UHGV virus genome: UHGV-0169486
Direction: 5' to 3' (one strand)
Length of the DNA: 50,405 nt
DNA from: a virus
The position numbers and the translations under genes were made by a program. The notes under the pieces are model-generated. The model was not told the origin of the DNA and ran no database searches. It was given only the letters and a program-made list of their open reading frames with translations. Positions 4,624-33,173 of the stretch are shown piece by piece; the first letter of the stretch is position 1; every line of letters starts with the position of its first letter.

Positions 4624-4638
4624 TTGAGGATAAGCAAA

Positions 4639-5292
4639 ATGAATAAACTAAAAGCAATTGGCGTGATTAGCCATCGCACTAACCCTGAATGTTACCCATC
4701 GTTTGAGGTAACAACATGCCGCACAGAATATAATTTTGGATCATACTATTTATTGGGTGTCCGCGCTGACACTGGCGGCACTTATTCGGTTATGGCTGCA
4801 AGCTGGAAATTTGATAAATACGCTAATTTATCGAATAAGGATGATGACGGCATGAATAAAGAAAGTGAAATCATTGATGAATTAATCGAAGATGAACGCC
4901 ATGATTGCGAAACACAACAAGAAAAAACAGAATGGAAGCCAGGAGAAAAGCCGCCGTGCGGCGTGTGGCTTGATTGTTATTATCCTGATGGCTATTACAT
5001 TGGGATTGTAATGTTTAAGTTTATCGGTGATAAATACGGGGTATACACAGAAAAAGGCAGTATACAGAAAGAAAATGCTATTGAATGGGGTTTTTATAAT
5101 TATTATTTATACGTTGATCCGAAAGAAAAAGCACTGGCGCAAATTGCGTTTGCTCTGGCTACGAAGGTTATTGGTGAGGATGCGGCAGGAGAAATAAATT
5201 TCAATCGTGATAATGATTATTCGCGTGATTATCGCAATATGGCGCAAGCTATTATTGACGGATGTATCGGACACGTTGAATACACGGAATAA
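4639..5292 (+). CDS. hypothetical protein, AT-rich accessory gene
   Basis: ORF track (4624..5292); ATG 4639 with GAGGA RBS; AT-rich codon usage by eye; Cys-containing, no recognised domain. Confidence 0.55.
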   Translation: MNKLKAIGVISHRTNPECYPSFEVTTCRTEYNFGSYYLLGVRADTGGTYSVMAASWKFDKYANLSNKDDDGMNKESEIIDELIEDERHDCETQQEKTEWKPGEKPPCGVWLDCYYPDGYYIGIVMFKFIGDKYGVYTEKGSIQKENAIEWGFYNYYLYVDPKEKALAQIAFALATKVIGEDAAGEINFNRDNDYSRDYRNMAQAIIDGCIGHVEYTE

Positions 5293-5426
5293 TGGATAAA
5301 ACAGGGACAATCCTTCTTAGTCGCCCTGCCATCTGCCGGATGCTTGGTGGAATTAGCAGGGGAACATTTTATTTATGGCGTAAAAAATGGGAACGGAACG
5401 GAACTCCGTTCCCCTGTCTGGAATGA
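5292..5426 (+). CDS. AlpA-like small HTH protein (44 aa)
   Basis: Own translation MDKTGTILLSRPAICRMLGGISRGTFYLWRKKWERNGTPFPCLE; GISRGTFY..W....FP pattern typical of AlpA/excisionase-like HTH; TAATG coupling to upstream gene. Confidence 0.4.
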   Translation: MDKTGTILLSRPAICRMLGGISRGTFYLWRKKWERNGTPFPCLE

Positions 5427-5511
5427 TTAACGACATGAATAATCATTTGTAAAACAGCATGTTATGTTATCTTTGCTTTGGATTTTTGATATTTGGTCAC
5501 TATTTGGTACA

Positions 5512-5541
5512 CAAAAAGAAACGAGGAGTTAGCCTCGTTTC
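5512..5541 (-). terminator. rho-independent terminator at end of minus-strand late block
   Basis: Stem GAAACGAGG/CCTCGTTTC, 6-nt loop, T-run on minus strand; immediately downstream of 5585..5851 gene. Confidence 0.6.
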
Positions 5542-5584
5542 GCGGCGATGTCTTCAACATCACCATGCTGTTGCTGTCGCACCA

Positions 5585-5851
5585 TCAAGCCCATGCGCGG
5601 ACGCCTGGATCTAGAACGATGAATTTTTCCAGCGGCGACAAATCAACATCGTCGCCAGTAATGCGCATGTTGACGTAATAGCCCTTTTTCTCAATCAGTA
5701 CAGGTGTCTCACTTTCTGGATCATCGAATACAGGCACAAAACCAATTTCATCAACAAATACGGTTGACCAGTTGGCGTCCAGCCAGCCGCTCTTAATCAC
5801 AATATCGTTGTATTGCTGTTTATCAGTAAATTGCAAGCTAACATCTTTCAT
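5585..5851 (-). CDS. hypothetical protein downstream of tail fiber (possible fiber accessory/assembly protein)
   Basis: ORF track (5585..5869); ATG 5851 with AAGGTGG RBS. Confidence 0.5.
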   Translation of the reverse strand: MKDVSLQFTDKQQYNDIVIKSGWLDANWSTVFVDEIGFVPVFDDPESETPVLIEKKGYYVNMRITGDDVDLSPLEKFIVLDPGVRAWA

Positions 5852-5861
5852 ATTCACCACC

Positions 5862-7625
5862 TTAAACAATCTCGCTCAATTGCGCATCGGTCAATGCTTT
5901 GTGCCATACCCTGAAATTTCTAATGTGTCCAAAAAGATGTCGCACCCCCGACGTGGCTTGCCCGCCAAAACGGATTGACGTAGCACTGACTGCGAATACA
6001 TTGCCGCTTGGTTTGGTTGTATATTTACCGTTGCACACGGCATCGACCGAAAGATTCTGCTGCGCGCGAACACCAGCAATAAAGTGACGGCTTTCGGGCT
6101 GAATTAACGGTTGCACCATTCCTACGTTAGCCGCAATCTCACCCGTGCTAACAAATCCAAGCGATAAGTAATTATCATTACTCCTATTACCTCCAACATC
6201 AAAAATTCGAGGCGATTGGTTTGGCGGCGTACCCCAGTTTACGTGCACCTCGACCAGTGATGTGAACGGTAGGGATGATAGATTGTTTTCTGCGAAGATA
6301 TTGACCATATCGCTGGCGCGCGTTGTCGGTAATGTGCCGGAGATGATATATGAGGACGCCCCTATTCCTAGCTCAACTTGCGGTGTGGTTAGTTCGATAT
6401 AATCCCCGGCAGCATAACTACTCACTGGCGAGATCTGGAACTGTGCGTTAACCAATGCCGTGGTGGATTGCAGCATCACCACCGCGCGATTCCATCCGGT
6501 GACCTCGTCTCTCTCAACTTCTACCGTGATACGTTTCGCAGCGCCACCAGTTTTAGACACTGACAAGTCGCTAAGTTTAATGTATGCGTCGCCGGAGAAA
6601 GTCATACTACTCTGATCCGCACCCTCTGCAAAACGCACGCGCAGACGTACATCCTTGTCGGACCGGAATCGGCATGATGCCGTTACATATTTCTCGTCAC
6701 CAGACGTATCAAGACTGTTAGCCGCAGTTACGGAAGCCATATTAAACGCCGTATTTTTTCCTACACCATCGGCCACGATCACGCACTTACCGTACAGGAA
6801 GCCGAAGGCATCCGTGTTTGCAGTTGTCGTAACTGACGGCGAGCACCCCCAGCTTGATGGAGTGTTACCGTTTATAATGTAGTTAGTTCTGGTCCCTTCA
6901 ACCAGCAGCCCTTCTCGTTCAAAACGTGGTTCGTCAATGGCTGCTTCCTTAAACACACCGGATTTGTTTATATAAGTTGCTTTTGACGCGCGTTTAAATT
7001 TAACGATCTTGTCACCTGGTACTGTTGTTTCTTCTTCACCAATAACAATCTTTTTATAGGAAGGGGAAAACCCGGTAATCATGTCGAGAGAGTCGTTAAA
7101 CGGTATCCATACGTCCGGCAGCGGCTGCAAAACATACGCGTAAGGCTGCGCTGTCTGATTGGCGTATTCGCGGGCCTCGTCTCTGTATGTCTTAGCTGAA
7201 TCGGCGGCGCTTGTCGCTGTTGTTGCAGCGTTGGTTGCAGTGGTAGCTGATTGTGACGCTAATTTTGATGCTGAAATCACATCTTTGTTGTCGCTGAAAA
7301 ATTCGACGGCGTCAGCTATTTCTGATTCCTTGCCTTGATAGTAACGCAGTGTTTCGGCGACATCCTGAGCAAGACCATCTACAGAGATCGAGTCTGAAAG
7401 CAGGATGCTAAATTTAGTGCCAGCCGGAATAGCAGGACTTGCCGAGGGGGTTACTGATAAACTTGTTGCGCTTTTTACCTCTGTAATTGAAAAAATCTGC
7501 ACCGGATCGCTAATGGCAATAAGAGTGCAACCAACCCTGATCAGAGATAATGCGGCGTTGAATTCAGTCCCTGTCCCGGTAACTGTTTTTCCGCTAACGG
7601 CTATCGTGCCTGTTGTGTAAATCAT
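5862..7625 (-). CDS. side tail fiber / receptor-binding protein
   Basis: ORF track (5862..7679); ATG 7625 with AAGGAG RBS lies downstream of a TATAAT promoter; Thr/Gly-rich N-terminus, Ala/Thr/Ser-rich central segment, C-terminal lectin-like region. Confidence 0.8.
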   Translation of the reverse strand: MIYTTGTIAVSGKTVTGTGTEFNAALSLIRVGCTLIAISDPVQIFSITEVKSATSLSVTPSASPAIPAGTKFSILLSDSISVDGLAQDVAETLRYYQGKESEIADAVEFFSDNKDVISASKLASQSATTATNAATTATSAADSAKTYRDEAREYANQTAQPYAYVLQPLPDVWIPFNDSLDMITGFSPSYKKIVIGEEETTVPGDKIVKFKRASKATYINKSGVFKEAAIDEPRFEREGLLVEGTRTNYIINGNTPSSWGCSPSVTTTANTDAFGFLYGKCVIVADGVGKNTAFNMASVTAANSLDTSGDEKYVTASCRFRSDKDVRLRVRFAEGADQSSMTFSGDAYIKLSDLSVSKTGGAAKRITVEVERDEVTGWNRAVVMLQSTTALVNAQFQISPVSSYAAGDYIELTTPQVELGIGASSYIISGTLPTTRASDMVNIFAENNLSSLPFTSLVEVHVNWGTPPNQSPRIFDVGGNRSNDNYLSLGFVSTGEIAANVGMVQPLIQPESRHFIAGVRAQQNLSVDAVCNGKYTTKPSGNVFAVSATSIRFGGQATSGVRHLFGHIRNFRVWHKALTDAQLSEIV

Positions 7626-7655
7626 CGCAATGACTCCTTTGTTATTAGTTATAAT

Positions 7656-7684
7656 ATTATACCAACTGTATTTGCTCACACAAA
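7656..7684 (-). promoter_or_regulatory. sigma70-like promoter for side tail fiber gene
   Basis: Perfect -10 TATAAT with TTTGTG 17 nt upstream, read on minus strand. Confidence 0.4.
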
Positions 7685-7732
7685 ATATGCATATTATTAT
7701 TTCTATAAGATATTAAATGTTGGGGGAATATC

Positions 7733-8695
7733 ATGGGGCAAGGTTTATACATAGATCTTAATGATGGCCGTCCGGCGATGGAAATTACTTCAGGATTAAG
7801 AGCGCCGTCATATTGCGGATCGTTTGGGTCAATTCCCGCCGAAACCACAAGCTATACATTCACAATGCCAACCTGCTTCCCTGGTGGTAGTGACGGTTTT
7901 TTCTTTTCATTAAAGCCTGCAACTATAAAAGAAGTTTATCCAACTACTAATGTATGCTGGATCAGCAATGTTACTAAGTTAAACTCTACTCAATGGAAGG
8001 TAGATTTTGGTTATGCAAACGGGCCCGGATGGGAAGGTGATACCGTACTGGTTAGCGGTTTGTTTTTTGAAATAGGATACCCAAGCAATAGCGGAGCTGG
8101 TTTATATATAAGAGATTCAACTGATTTCACTACGATAACAACGAATTCTAATTTATTATGTTGCACTTACGCTGGGAACATTACGTTTACTGGGACTTAT
8201 AATTTGCCGTCTGGAACTGTGGTGGCGTTTGGTAGATGGGATGATCCTAATGTTGTTGTTGAAAGATCAGGGAACACCATAAAGTGTACAAGAGTCGCGC
8301 TAGGGAGTGATTACATCACCGTTGACGCAACTGTTAACATGGATTTAGTTGTATTTAGAAGGCAGACTCCTGCTGCTGGCAATGCTGGATTGGTAATGAG
8401 GAATGCATCCGGTCAGGTTGTGTTCTCAACGGCACAAAGGCCGTTTGTTTTTGGTGGTACATTTAACATGGCTAATGGTAATCAATATATAGGCAATGCA
8501 TTCGTTCCTATAGCAAGATACGGCGCGTTAACTGAGAAAAACATAAATATGTACTATTATTACTATTACGGCGCAATAAGATCAGGTGGATACATTAGAC
8601 CAAGCAGGGGGAGTCTGATAGTTGCAAGGACAAATGGGAGGCATGTAAACGCTATCGCTAACATTAATTACCCGCTGTTACCAGCAATGTATTGA
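7733..8695 (+). CDS. hypothetical beta-rich protein with three internal repeats; AT-rich opposite-strand accessory gene
   Basis: ORF track; GGGGGAA RBS; AT-rich with AGA/AGG codons; convergent with J; followed by bidirectional terminator. Confidence 0.6.
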   Translation: MGQGLYIDLNDGRPAMEITSGLRAPSYCGSFGSIPAETTSYTFTMPTCFPGGSDGFFFSLKPATIKEVYPTTNVCWISNVTKLNSTQWKVDFGYANGPGWEGDTVLVSGLFFEIGYPSNSGAGLYIRDSTDFTTITTNSNLLCCTYAGNITFTGTYNLPSGTVVAFGRWDDPNVVVERSGNTIKCTRVALGSDYITVDATVNMDLVVFRRQTPAAGNAGLVMRNASGQVVFSTAQRPFVFGGTFNMANGNQYIGNAFVPIARYGALTEKNINMYYYYYYGAIRSGGYIRPSRGSLIVARTNGRHVNAIANINYPLLPAMY

Positions 8696-8728
8696 AAAAT
8701 AAAGCCCCTATGTAGGGGCTTTTTATTA
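8695..8728. terminator. bidirectional rho-independent terminator between J and the 7733..8695 gene
   Basis: Hairpin AAAGCCCC..GGGGCTTT flanked by A-run and T-run. Confidence 0.7.
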
Positions 8729-11700
8729 CCAGTATCCAAGTATTATCACGCCACCATTCGGCAGATTAACTCTAACACCGTTATTATTAAGAATTACGCG
8801 CCCGTCGCTCCTCGTCATGCTAAATGTTCCGCCGCCTTGAACAATAACACTACCTCTCACGGTAACGTTGTTAAATTCAGCTCTACCATCTTTATTAATC
8901 ATCCACCCTGCGGATCCTGACGCGTAGTTAGATGATTGTATCTGCTGTGCGATCTTAGCACTTGTGATTGTTGCGTCTTTGATCCATGCGTCGCGTATAT
9001 AGCAAGAGCCATTTTGAACGTAGAAAGGCGTTTGATATGTACCGTTTGCGGCAGTCATTAACACAAAGCGATCAACAAGGAAAATACACTGTGACTGAAA
9101 GTTAGTCCCGTCTCCAGTCAATCCAAGCGACATACCTGTAGCGTATTTCATGCCGTTGTTATCGGTGGCGAGCTTGATTGAATATGACGCATCAACGTTG
9201 CCTTTGAAATCGGTTAACGCTTTCGATGTTGTCTCGATCGCTGTTGTGTTCCCGTTAACGGTCACTTTCAGCTGATCAATTTTGGTTGATAATGCCTCGT
9301 CCGCCGTTGTCATGGCCTGCGACCATTCAGTGATGCTTGAGTTTACATCGTCGAAAGATGCCGATATTTGGACAAATTTTTCAGCACTTGATGCCTCGTG
9401 AGTAGCGAGCGCCGTTGATATATCTGTTATTTTTGCTGAAATATTTTCATTAATATTGGCTTCAAGTGATGCTATAGCTTCCGCGCGGGCCTGGGTTTCG
9501 TCCGCTATTGCTGTGTCGACCCTTGCTATTTCTGCTTTTGTTTTTGTCTGGCCTTTCCTGTATTTTGCCTCAATAACAGTGCTCATTTTACTTTGCGCTA
9601 TTGAGTTGTTGATAAGTGCAATCGAGGCGTTTTGCAGACTTGCTTTCGCCTGATCTATTTCGTCGCTGTTTTTATCAACCTCATTTTCAACAAGACCAAG
9701 CTCCGCACTGATACCTGATATTGCCTGAGCGCGCGCACTTGATTCGTCAGCGATAGCTTGATCCAGGCGGCTAACACTGGCATTTGTGCTATTTTCAAGC
9801 GTTGTTAAATCAGCTTTAACCTCTGTTATTGCGTCGCTTCTTGCCTGCATTTCATCTGATATTGCTTTATCGAGACGAGAAACGCTCGCATCAGTTTTGT
9901 TTTCCAGGCTGCTGATACTGGCGTTAACGTTGCTTATAGCCTCCGTTCTCGCCTGCGTTTCGGTTGCCATTGCTTTGTCTACTCGGGCTATTTCTCCTTT
10001 GATGTTTGAGTCCATCGTATTTATTTCGGCTGTGATGGTTTCCAGTGATTCCGCTGTCGCTTTTTTCTCCTCTGCGATAACGTTGTCGATGCGGTCAATC
10101 TGTGCCTTCGTTTCGTTGCGACCTTTCTTATATTGAGCGGTAAGAGTAACCCGCGTGTTAGTTTGAGCAAGCGAGTTATTGATCAGAGCAAGCGAAGCGT
10201 TTTGTAAACTTGCTTTTGTCTGTGCCAGTTCGTTGTTAACGTTTTCGTTTGATACCTCTAATGAGTCTATTCTTACCTCATGTTTGCCTATTCCATCGGC
10301 GTTTTCTTCGACTTTTTTATAAAGGTCTTCGGTGTCTTTTTTAAGTGTATCTGTGTCAGCTTTAAGGTCGTCGGTGGCTGCCTTAAGGTCGTCAGTAGCG
10401 GATTTAAGGTCGTTGGTCGCACTTTCTATAATATCAGTGCGATCGCCAAGATCTTTAATATCGCTAATCATCTCTTTGAATTGCTCTGATTCCATTACAT
10501 CCTTTGTAACGTAATCAGTGATTTCGTCAAAATCCTCTGTTGGCTTACCTGATGCCTCGACGAAATCAGACACACCAAAAGCATTACGAGTGCGAACATA
10601 AACGTAATAAGTGTGGCCCGTGTTCATGCCGCCAAAAGTCCACTGATAACCGCGCCCGGTAAACTGTGCCGACGTGGTTATTTTTGCCGGATCTGTGATC
10701 TGGTTTTCCCCTGCATAGTAGAATTCGTATGACGTATCGGTAGTAAGTGTGGTTTTGCTTATCGGGTACACGGTCGCCTGAAATACGCCGGGAACCCAAT
10801 TAACGCCGATCGGTGCTGCTGGCGCACCGATAACAAGGTCAACGATACTTTCTGCACCCTTCATGCCAGTATCATTTCTTCCGCGAACGCCTAAAGAATA
10901 CACGCCAGCTTCAATACCATAAAAATCATAACTATATTTCGTGGTTTCATAGCTTTTAACCACCGCACCATCTGCATTGTATATGCGGATCTCGAAGGTC
11001 ATGCGATGCGTAGTTGTCTGTGTTTCCCATGTAGCGCGGCATTGAACAGTCTCTGACGCAATGTTTATTACTTTCAGGTTTTCTATGTTCGGAACGCGGA
11101 AATGATTAAGCGTGTCGTTGTTGATTTCAAATATTGCGCCTTCATCGACTACCGCTTGTTTGTTCGGGTCGTGCTGCGCGGCCTCGATGGTGTACACGCT
11201 GTTGTTTTCAGTTTCGGCTACGCTGGTGATCCTGCATAAAACGGGTTTTGCTGCTTCGGTTGATACAGCAAAAACAGTCCCGTTCCGAATCCATGCCGGG
11301 GCCGCTGCCAGTGTGATTTTGTTCCCGTTAACACCAGTGATCTGATGTTTTTTAAATTTTCCATCGCTATCAAGAAGACTTATAGTGTCGCCAGCCGCAA
11401 TATATTCTGAATCGACCTTATCTACCGTTATCACTTTACCATTGTTCGCCACGATGCGACCGCCTAAGCGAGCGCCAGCGCGGTTATTGTCGAGGATCTC
11501 GATTATATCCCCTGGCGTAAAGTGAATTGCGTCACGCGCCATTTTAAACGTGAATTTTGACGGCTCGCGTTTTGCTGTTTCTATCAGCCATTTGCCCGCG
11601 CGGTGCGCTTGCCCGCGTGACGTACAGCCGAACGCCTCCATCGTGGTTTCGTTGTAACCATCGCGGGCGATTAGCTCATCATCTGCTACATACTCTTTTG

Positions 11701-12943
11701 ATTGCTCCCAGCCGTTTTCCGGGTCAGTCCAGGACACAATCACGGCGTTGTAGCATTCCGCGCGGGAGATACTCGATCGAGTGAACGCCCCGTCAACGAC
11801 GTTTGCGTTTGTAATGGTGGCGATCGGGTCTTGTGGTGCATCAATCATCACGGTGAGGCGTTGCCCGTCCCATAACGCGATGCCTCGGAACATCCCGGCG
11901 ATATTGTCCAGTAAGTCGCGGGCGCTCATCTGCTCCGTAATGTAAGCATTAAGCGTCATGCGAGGCTCAAGGCCGCCATAACCATCATCGACCAGCTGAT
12001 CGCAGTATTGAGAAAGCGTATATAATGCGCCGTCGTCAACGTCAATATAGCCAGCATGACGGGCAAGGCCGAAACGCCTGTTTTTAACCAGATAGCGGAA
12101 TATCCAGGCGGGGTTATTACTGTATGCCTGTTTGAATCCGCCAAGCCATAAACCGGAATAAGTGCGAGTTTCCGGGTTATAGTTATCAGGAACATCAACA
12201 ATCAGCCCGCGCAGGTGATAAGTGCGGGTAGGCGTGTCAGCGTACTGATCATGATCAATCACCGCGCCAGCTACAGCGGTGTGAGGATAAGACAAATTAT
12301 CGTCGATTATTTCGCTGTAACTACTCCATCTCGTATCATTCTGCAATAGATCGCTTGTGCTATCGGCTGTTACACGGCGAACGCGAATATCGAAAGGTCT
12401 TTCATTTGGAGCGTTAATGACATGAGATTCGAGATATTCGCCGCTCTGCTTACCCGGGCCGATGGTTACGCTTTTAGCCAGCGACCATGCCGAAAATGAG
12501 GATGGTTTAACTTCAATCGCCATCATTACGGATGTGTTATGTTGATTGCTTTGCTCGTCAGACTGCACAAGCGAATCCACGCCGATATTCAGGCGAACGC
12601 GGTTTACGTTAGGATCGGAAACAGTCCTGATTATTGGCGTGTCGTGAGTTACCTTAGCGTTAACAATAGTGGTTGATTCAATGCCGTTAAAACCGTTAAT
12701 CGGAGATTGATCTAACGTGCCGTTACGCCACGCCACACTAACACCATGAACGCTTGTATTTCCGTTTGCGTCAGTAACAGGCGTGTCATTAAGCATCACG
12801 CTATTTAATGGCGCTTTTGTATTGACAGGGCCATAAATCGGCCCTTCTGAAATAATATCGAGTACACGATAAAACTGTTTGTGATAAAGGTTATCGTTTA
12901 TTAATGTTGGTGTTTTTGCTTTACCACCGCCGCCGCTACTCAT
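8726..12943 (-). CDS. J: tail tip / central tail fiber protein (lambda J-like)
   Basis: N-terminal 400 aa recalled as similar to lambda J (ISEGPI, YHLRG, CTSRGQAHRAG); long coiled-coil middle; 1405 aa. Confidence 0.9.
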   Translation of the reverse strand: MSSGGGGKAKTPTLINDNLYHKQFYRVLDIISEGPIYGPVNTKAPLNSVMLNDTPVTDANGNTSVHGVSVAWRNGTLDQSPINGFNGIESTTIVNAKVTHDTPIIRTVSDPNVNRVRLNIGVDSLVQSDEQSNQHNTSVMMAIEVKPSSFSAWSLAKSVTIGPGKQSGEYLESHVINAPNERPFDIRVRRVTADSTSDLLQNDTRWSSYSEIIDDNLSYPHTAVAGAVIDHDQYADTPTRTYHLRGLIVDVPDNYNPETRTYSGLWLGGFKQAYSNNPAWIFRYLVKNRRFGLARHAGYIDVDDGALYTLSQYCDQLVDDGYGGLEPRMTLNAYITEQMSARDLLDNIAGMFRGIALWDGQRLTVMIDAPQDPIATITNANVVDGAFTRSSISRAECYNAVIVSWTDPENGWEQSKEYVADDELIARDGYNETTMEAFGCTSRGQAHRAGKWLIETAKREPSKFTFKMARDAIHFTPGDIIEILDNNRAGARLGGRIVANNGKVITVDKVDSEYIAAGDTISLLDSDGKFKKHQITGVNGNKITLAAAPAWIRNGTVFAVSTEAAKPVLCRITSVAETENNSVYTIEAAQHDPNKQAVVDEGAIFEINNDTLNHFRVPNIENLKVINIASETVQCRATWETQTTTHRMTFEIRIYNADGAVVKSYETTKYSYDFYGIEAGVYSLGVRGRNDTGMKGAESIVDLVIGAPAAPIGVNWVPGVFQATVYPISKTTLTTDTSYEFYYAGENQITDPAKITTSAQFTGRGYQWTFGGMNTGHTYYVYVRTRNAFGVSDFVEASGKPTEDFDEITDYVTKDVMESEQFKEMISDIKDLGDRTDIIESATNDLKSATDDLKAATDDLKADTDTLKKDTEDLYKKVEENADGIGKHEVRIDSLEVSNENVNNELAQTKASLQNASLALINNSLAQTNTRVTLTAQYKKGRNETKAQIDRIDNVIAEEKKATAESLETITAEINTMDSNIKGEIARVDKAMATETQARTEAISNVNASISSLENKTDASVSRLDKAISDEMQARSDAITEVKADLTTLENSTNASVSRLDQAIADESSARAQAISGISAELGLVENEVDKNSDEIDQAKASLQNASIALINNSIAQSKMSTVIEAKYRKGQTKTKAEIARVDTAIADETQARAEAIASLEANINENISAKITDISTALATHEASSAEKFVQISASFDDVNSSITEWSQAMTTADEALSTKIDQLKVTVNGNTTAIETTSKALTDFKGNVDASYSIKLATDNNGMKYATGMSLGLTGDGTNFQSQCIFLVDRFVLMTAANGTYQTPFYVQNGSCYIRDAWIKDATITSAKIAQQIQSSNYASGSAGWMINKDGRAEFNNVTVRGSVIVQGGGTFSMTRSDGRVILNNNGVRVNLPNGGVIILGYW
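9520..10240 (-). repeat. internal duplicated coiled-coil module within J gene
   Basis: Two protein segments KASLQNAS[LI]ALINNS[LI]AQ...AKY[KR]KG...TKA[QE]I about 185 aa apart, with matching nucleotide segments near 9540-9660 and 10100-10240; boundaries approximate. Confidence 0.5.
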
Positions 12944-32702: not shown

Positions 32703-33173
32703 TTATTTTTTGCGTAAGCACTGCGTTTTGATGTAGTCCTGCAATCCGGTGATCTTCGCGTCTTTCTCTTTTAGTTGTTCTCTGAGGGATAGATAAGCCG
32801 ATTCAGCGTCGGCAGTGAGTCTACAGGTGGCTCCATCAATGCGGCTGGCGGTTCCGGTATTGTCGAGCAATCGCACTGGCTCGGCGTTGACGTGCAACCT
32901 GATAGCGCCGCTATCAATGCCAGCGCGAAGATCGGCAATGTCAGATCTGATAGCTTTAATTTCATCGTGATACCTCTTATCAAGTTTTGATAGCTCTGCG
33001 TTTCGCTCCTTCATCTGCTGAATAGTGTTACTTGCTGTTTTTAGTGCGCCTTGCGTCACCGTGACTTCTTCCTGTAACCTTGCCGCCTCACCCTGGTAAT
33101 AACATGTAACGGCAGTTAGTCCGGCAATAATGCAAACAACAACGGCAATAACTAACGCCTTTACCTTGTCCAT
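32703..33173 (-). CDS. Rz: i-spanin (Rz-like)
   Basis: N-terminal TM segment, coiled-coil body; downstream of endolysin; contains embedded Rz1-like ORF. Confidence 0.75.
32771..32965 (-). CDS. Rz1: o-spanin (Rz1-like lipoprotein) embedded in Rz in +1 frame
   Basis: Signal peptide with lipobox LSGC; Pro-rich mature part; fully embedded in Rz. Confidence 0.6.
   Translation of the reverse strand: MKLKLSDLTLPIFALALIAALSGCTSTPSQCDCSTIPEPPAALMEPPVDSLPTLNRLIYPSENN

Follow-up and report, generated by a model that had tools for sequence, protein, structure and literature searches.

What is the function of a gene that runs against the late tail operon of a phage, placed between two tail fiber genes? 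The question is raised by positions 7733–8695 of UHGV virus genome UHGV-0169486 (50,405 nucleotides, the whole of which is referred to here as the window), where a 320-residue protein is encoded on the plus strand between the minus-strand genes for J, the central tail fiber, and for a lateral tail fiber. A sequence-only reading of this stretch had offered a lectin-like or adhesin-like accessory protein, an exclusion factor, or an alternative receptor-binding component. The last of these was essentially right: the product is very likely a tail-tip receptor-binding protein (RBP), and probably the terminal RBP rather than an accessory one, of the Rtp44/RBP-Oekolampad family. It represents not a new kind of system but a divergent member of the known DUF6453 RBP family.

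A DUF6453 protein encoded directly after J

Membership in the DUF6453/Rtp44/RBP-Oekolampad family is established on sequence, fold, position, and J partner. The protein gives a full-length match to Pfam DUF6453 (PF20051; E 8.6e-79, 265.3 bits versus a cut-off of 25), with residues 4–297 aligning to profile positions 1–287 of 291. A sequence search of the Protein Data Bank retrieved one protein, chain C of 9RPT, 9RPW, and 9RQI (E 3e-43, residues 1–296), and the window protein has the same three-dimensional fold as 9RPT chain C. This chain is the RBP of phage Oekolampad (Bas18), whose complex with LptDE was solved by cryo-electron microscopy at 2.8 Å; LptD point mutants that give phage resistance abolish binding of this RBP in vitro (Dunbar et al. 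2025, PMC12685063). Identity is 35% to the Oekolampad RBP over the available 293 residues, and 34–40%, at 100% coverage, to Rtp44 and the TR2, ETEP102, and P0002 homologues. A screen of 255 phages defined its LptD family operationally by >30% identity and >99% coverage, and by these sequence thresholds the window protein belongs to that family. The gene also occupies the expected position. Maffei et al. and Black et al. place the RBP directly after the gpJ homologue, in an open reading frame (ORF) of ~930–960 bp; the window gene lies immediately downstream of J and measures 960 bp plus the stop codon.

The ORF call of the sequence-only reading, from an ATG, was borne out, as were its description of a protein rich in Thr, Ser, Gly, and Asn (Ala, Val, and Tyr are abundant too) and the run of six tyrosines, which spans residues 274–279. 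Several NCBI entries from Escherichia coli (in the cluster of P0001/P0167) instead give a 305-residue protein starting at Met16, thereby dropping residues 1–15, the most conserved part of the family and a portion of its presumed J-docking base. The start at 7733 is favored over Met16 because residues 1–25 are conserved family-wide. The 90% cluster of the protein has 15 members; the exact protein is present in GenBank as DAR54151.1, from a metagenome-assembled Caudoviricetes contig, and near-identical forms occur in several E. coli draft genomes.

Three internal repeats of roughly 100 residues had also been proposed, and these did not hold up. Smith–Waterman alignment of the three thirds of the protein against shuffled sequences yielded z-scores of 1.6, −0.7, and 2.2. 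The repeat architecture was likewise rejected by hhalign profile–profile comparison of sub-alignments from a 62-sequence family alignment, which returned probabilities of <1%. What had been taken for repeats is explained by a short motif, G-[LI]-x-[IVM], that recurs at residues 4, 123, and 219. G4, G123, and G219 are among just 18 invariant columns of the family, in which conservation is highest over the N-terminal ~25 residues. The corresponding coding stretch (window 7725–7801) is the sole DNA similarity to a T1-like cassette, that of TR2. More speculatively, a base with pseudo-threefold symmetry could be built from the three invariant motifs, allowing a single monomer to sit on the trimeric J fiber as its cap.

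The J tip as presumed docking partner

The final ~20 codons of J (about 8729–8790) encode NNNGVRVNLPNGGVIILGYW, and the C-terminal motif of J can be written N-G-N-G-[ILV]-[TR]-V-N-L-x-x-G-G-x-[IV]-[IV]-[ILV]-G-x-[WF]. All seven J proteins examined that adjoin a DUF6453 gene carry it (those of the window, mEp021, Rtp, TR2, a T1-like metagenome contig, an E. coli prophage, and a Citrobacter prophage), whereas it was not found in either of the two J proteins lacking a DUF6453 neighbor, MagusPhagus J and T1 gp33. This co-occurrence fits the recent finding that the J tip has specificity-associated features thought to secure compatibility with the locus-encoded RBP. Over the last 238 residues, the J tips of the window and mEp021 show 77% identity; for the RBPs of the two phages the figure is only 36%.

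MagusPhagus J extends ~116 residues past the last residue aligned to the window J. Such an extension fits the rule derived from the BASEL collection, according to which a C-terminal extension of J assumes receptor binding where the RBP locus is absent (PMC8594841). The window J has no receptor-binding extension of its own and ends at the docking motif.

Long heptad-like repeats rich in Ala, Thr, Asp, Glu, and Lys are encoded from the middle of J toward its C-terminus (window 9200–10400, minus strand); the Pfam domains of J are FNIII-A_GpJ, Phage-tail_3, Ig_J, and Phage_Tail_Tip. The AT skew of the repeat region is strong (−0.33 to −0.40) and its segments are partly self-similar, with DNA-level tandem repeats limited to one short 21-bp array at 10362–10417. 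The length of the J repeat region varies between phages, as described in the mEpimmI paper.

A probable mobile cassette and its two possible formats

Among temperate coliphages, the window falls into the mEp021 (mEpimmI) group. Its closest sequenced phage is MagusPhagus (88% DNA identity), its structural genes are about 85% identical to those of mEp021 and relatives, and its early-gene arm is found in E. coli prophages. The layout in which J is followed by an RBP gene on the opposite strand is shared with Rtp (rtp43 encoding J, then rtp44 and rtp45), TR2, and ETEP102, as well as with mEp021 itself (gp79 as J, then gp80 and gp81). In phage T1, an FhuA user, the locus is unrelated and consists of gp32, gp31, and cor. 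The mEp021 protein gp80 matches DUF6453 with an E value of 1.6e-104 and is 64% identical to Rtp44. Its product name in GenBank is "virion structural protein"; gp80 was not found named when mass-spectrometry evidence was sought in the text and supplements of the mEp021 paper, leaving the GenBank label as the only statement to this effect.

Comparison with these relatives delimits the exchanged segment. Matches to mEp021 by blastn cover window 7296–7640, the 5′ end of the fiber gene, and resume at 8751, within J and 25 nt from its 3′ terminus; those to MagusPhagus cover 7303–7640 and resume at 8853. Megablast of 7600–8760 against 50,697 phage records gave no match, and among 5,426 complete E. 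coli genomes just 45–48 nt at the edge of the fiber gene were matched, so that the allele is rare at the DNA level. The unit at 7641–8750 would thus be a horizontally exchanged module.

Composition is consistent with this view. The use of AGA and AGG remarked on in the sequence-only reading extends to 15 of the 16 Arg codons in the gene, versus 24–28% in J and the fiber gene. Its claim of marked AT-richness was too strong: at 41.7% GC versus a window mean of 46.2%, the gene is moderately AT-rich and falls at the 8th percentile among 963-bp windows. The AGR share of Arg codons is likewise high in Rtp44 (88%), mEp021 gp80 (83%), ETEP102 (80%), and TR2 (67%). Low GC content and the AGA/AGG habit are therefore a signature of the cassette and not peculiar to the window gene, and the foreign-looking composition is accounted for by the frequent horizontal exchange of RBP cassettes (PMC8594841).

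A different arrangement is observed in an E. coli prophage (L013, 5001–5957) and a Citrobacter prophage (L015, 5001–5963), in which J and the DUF6453 gene point the same way, the latter adjoining or overlapping the end of J, with a tail-fiber gene next in line. These versions have no lipoprotein gene and use ordinary Arg codons (AGR share 27–28%). Such an arrangement is as expected for a tail structural gene. The two layouts suggest that the same RBP exists in two evolutionary formats, as an integrated tail gene and as a mobile convergent cassette.

Receptor assignment

We propose that a single copy of the protein caps the trimeric J fiber through a conserved base, which would comprise the N-terminal ~25 residues and the segments around 123–135 and 219–237. 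Conserved family residues map to the base, away from the receptor end (Black et al., PMC13035648). Variable loops at the far end would insert into a β-barrel of the E. coli outer membrane, and this insertion would make adsorption irreversible and trigger DNA ejection. The receptor is most likely LptD, which exports LPS, a candidate that we hold at about even confidence within the RBP assignment; the alternative is a different outer-membrane protein. LptD-dependent phages with this RBP type include those of the AugustePiccard/Rtp type, FritzHoffmann, Oekolampad, and OzMSK (PMC8594841; PMC13035648), and all members whose receptor was typed via the RBP locus point to LptD (PMC8594841; PMC12685063; PMC13035648). 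Rtp44 and the LptD-binding Oekolampad RBP are themselves only 34% identical, although Rtp44 shares 96% identity with the AugustePiccard RBP, whose phage depends on LptD; a divergence like that of the window protein is thus compatible with LptD.

In related cassettes, a second gene bears on the receptor. An Rtp45-type lipoprotein (PF24052) is encoded before the RBP gene in Rtp, TR2, ETEP102, and mEp021, and exclusion is the task of this separate neighboring lipoprotein (PMC12685063). No such gene was found in the window by tblastn with four family members (best E 0.07), and a lipobox regular expression run over the window returned Rz1 as the sole lipobox ORF. The cassette has lost, or never had, the upstream superinfection-exclusion lipoprotein. 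This lack is uncommon but not unique, as the lipoprotein is also absent from the two co-directional prophage loci and from 8 of the 48 mEpimmI genomes analyzed. The Rz1 o-spanin lipoprotein (PF06085, E 1.8e-08) is encoded at 32771–32965 on the minus strand, embedded in an Rz-like ORF at 32703–33173.

Several points weigh against an LptD-binding RBP. The allele is ≤40% identical to any other cluster, its neighbors having been sought in an index of 5.8 billion proteins and by HMMER, applied exhaustively to 1.84 billion representatives. In a neighbor-joining, midpoint-rooted tree, which carries no support values and is indicative only, the long branch of the window lineage falls narrowly outside the clade that the validated LptD binders Rtp44 and Oekolampad define, so that phylogenetic bracketing for LptD does not cover it. 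The tyrosine run sits in place of a conserved Y-x-N-x-R-x-K strand, and within this lineage-specific run a near-invariant Arg of the family (column of residue 277) is lost. The cognate exclusion lipoprotein that might have corroborated the receptor is missing. The phages mEp021 and mEp515, both carriers of a DUF6453 RBP, are reported to need OmpA. Finally, the weakness of the candidate promoter at 7672–7700 counts against the reading.

Much of this evidence would suit a tail-tip RBP of the DUF6453 fold that recognizes OmpA or another barrel, with its loops retargeted and its J-docking base kept. Another outer-membrane protein in place of LptD is, within the RBP assignment, a tentative second choice. 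The long branch, the low identity, the missing LptD-directed lipoprotein, and the reported ompA dependence of mEp021 and mEp515 all favor it, as does the location of the conserved residues at the base and not at the receptor end. Set against it are the consistent mapping of family members to LptD, the breadth of sequence already spanned by Rtp44 and the LptD-binding Oekolampad RBP, and the presence in mEp021 of an Rtp45 homologue (E 1.6e-18), which argues that the RBP of mEp021 is also directed at LptD and that the OmpA effect has another origin. That the DUF6453 scaffold has, in this particular allele, been turned from LptD to a different outer-membrane receptor of E. coli seems rather unlikely; the idea draws on its deep branch outside the LptD clade, the lack of an LptD-directed lipoprotein, and the unique tyrosine-run strand.

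The case of mEp021 deserves separate mention. Positions 7742–8895 (minus strand) of this phage (MH706966) hold a complete LptD-type cassette, although the phage was published as OmpA-dependent with recognition assigned to J. Its gp81 (Lpp021), homologous to the LptDE-binding exclusion lipoprotein Rtp45 (9rps_D), was shown to exclude mEp021 and mEp515. Because LptD is essential, the screen of Keio knock-outs could not reveal it. LptD may thus be what mEp021 finally binds, and the effect of OmpA may be secondary.

Lectin-like and exclusion readings

The remaining explanations leave the RBP family altogether. A lectin-like accessory adhesin that binds lipopolysaccharide or capsule sugars, and not a terminal protein receptor, is very improbable. 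The idea was right insofar as the fold resembles that of H-type lectins such as SLL-2 (3WMP) and Helix pomatia agglutinin (2CCV), but identity to these is 9% over part of the protein only, and neither whole-domain homology nor the conserved sugar-binding site of the lectin family was found in the window protein; the three-repeat architecture that underlay the idea is unsupported, as described above. Moreover, the separate lateral fiber, with its concanavalin-like C-terminus, already serves glycan contact, and the gene occupies the terminal-RBP locus.

It is scarcely credible that the prophage expresses the gene as a moron, a membrane protein, or a superinfection-exclusion factor: the label "moron ... 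membrane protein" of PHROG 1265, copied by RefSeq as "membrane protein" onto phage homologues, together with the rare codons and AT-rich composition of a gene that is oppositely oriented and has a promoter-like site of its own, is outweighed by the absence from the protein of any signal peptide, lipobox, or transmembrane segment (maximum 19-residue Kyte–Doolittle hydropathy 0.92), by the lack of a match to PADLOC defense models, by a homologue that is a soluble, purified RBP (PMC12685063), by the co-directional genes at the end of J in the E. coli and Citrobacter prophages, and by the lipoprotein that performs exclusion in related cassettes. An NCBIfam search gave a sub-threshold chance match only. 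Lectin family, defense protein, and membrane protein were accordingly all rejected as descriptions of the window protein.

Expression signals and neighboring genes

The coordinates of the locus are collected in Table 1. Transcription of the DUF6453 gene would oppose the late tail operon, running from its own weak promoter to a terminator shared with J. The ribosome-binding site (RBS) and the convergence with J noted in the sequence-only reading are both present, with the stop codons of the two genes 30 bp apart. The proposed promoter stands on less certain ground. The block TGCTyAyACAAAATrT is kept in place upstream of the gp81–gp80 cassette of mEp021 and of the lipoprotein gene of MagusPhagus, but the site matches the consensus at 8 of 12 positions, and a consensus promoter scan of the region did not recover it and reported fewer sites than shuffled sequence yields. 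The proposed shared bidirectional terminator is matched by a 9-bp G+C-rich hairpin that an A-run and a T-run flank on opposite sides. The scan reported it on the minus strand (nine pairs, five of them G–C); read along the plus strand, the stem GCCCCT/AGGGGC leads into TTTTTATT, and a terminator is annotated at the same place in mEp021.

Table 1. Features of the DUF6453 locus in UHGV-0169486
Feature	Position	Strand	Basis
DUF6453 gene, predicted tail-tip RBP, 320 aa	7733..8695	+	ORF call, ATG start
Shine-Dalgarno-like GGGGGA	7722..7727	+	Sequence, 5 nt upstream of ATG
Candidate sigma-70 promoter TTGCTC(7672-7677)-17-TATTAT(7695-7700)	7672..7700	+	Sequence; weak, 8/12
Hairpin AAAGCCCCT-ATGT-AGGGGCTTT, bidirectional intrinsic terminator	8701..8722	.	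Between convergent stops
Lateral tail fiber gene, divergent neighbor	5862..7625	-	Likely ATG 7625, GGAG RBS
Limits of putative exchanged cassette	7641..8750	.	No DNA similarity to mEp021/MagusPhagus inside; conserved DNA outside
Central tail fiber J, 1405 aa, presumed docking partner	8726..12943	-	Pfam, PHROG matches

The lateral fiber gene matches a PHROG tail protein (E 3.8e-179) and encodes a Laminin_G_3-like C-terminus. Its start is probably 7625 (587 residues, as on other contigs) in preference to the GTG at 7679. On the minus strand, TGGTATAAT at 7664–7656 forms a perfect extended −10 element, directed toward the fiber gene and ~24 nt upstream of the GGAG RBS and the ATG at 7625; the aligned position in mEp021 and MagusPhagus reads TGGTAGAAT. 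Immediately downstream of the fiber gene is a 94-residue ORF (5585–5869, minus strand) with no Pfam match, which may encode a fiber chaperone. An AT-rich (39% GC) ORF of 222 residues at 4624–5292 on the plus strand, also with no Pfam match, stands just before the fiber module, with 5293–5860 following.

Relation to known systems and significance

The best-characterized relatives are the Oekolampad RBP and Rtp44, to which the window protein is just 34–38% identical, forming its own 50%-identity cluster of 15 sequences from E. coli prophages and from phage contigs of gut metagenomes. Whereas these two RBPs belong to small lytic siphophages, that of the window comes from a temperate phage of the mEpimmI group whose J is rich in coiled coils; its cassette lacks the adjacent exclusion lipoprotein, the tyrosine run replaces the conserved Y-x-N-x-R-x-K strand, and its binding to LptD is a prediction. 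Within its own group, the archetype mEp021 has the same locus between J and the lateral fiber but retains the lipoprotein gp81. More distantly, T5 pb5 with its partner Llp follows a shared logic, in which a separate monomeric RBP ends a trimeric fiber and binds an outer-membrane barrel (FhuA for T5), a partner periplasmic lipoprotein mediates exclusion, and the tail-proximal part of the RBP is poorly ordered, as it is in RBP-Oekolampad (PMC12685063). T5 pb5 nevertheless belongs to an unrelated RBP family with another receptor and genomic location, and the lipoprotein partner is absent in the window. J proteins of the lambda type (lambda; MagusPhagus and the mEp010 group, with LamB as receptor) occupy the same tail-tip position and role, but there J itself is credited with binding, through its C-terminal end, and a separate RBP gene is lacking, in contrast to the separate and exchangeable RBP of the window.

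Predicting the receptor from the genome matters for phage therapy and host-range engineering, and the locus downstream of J is the best-validated receptor predictor in small siphophages. The same exchangeable cassette is now seen in temperate, gut-prevalent mEpimmI coliphages, whose describing paper credited J alone. The divergent, lipoprotein-less allele of the window is useful both for probing the limits of LptD specificity of the fold and for learning which residues of the J tip and the RBP base secure compatibility. If the allele has indeed been retargeted, the DUF6453 fold would be a general, swappable platform for receptor recognition and not one specific to LptD.
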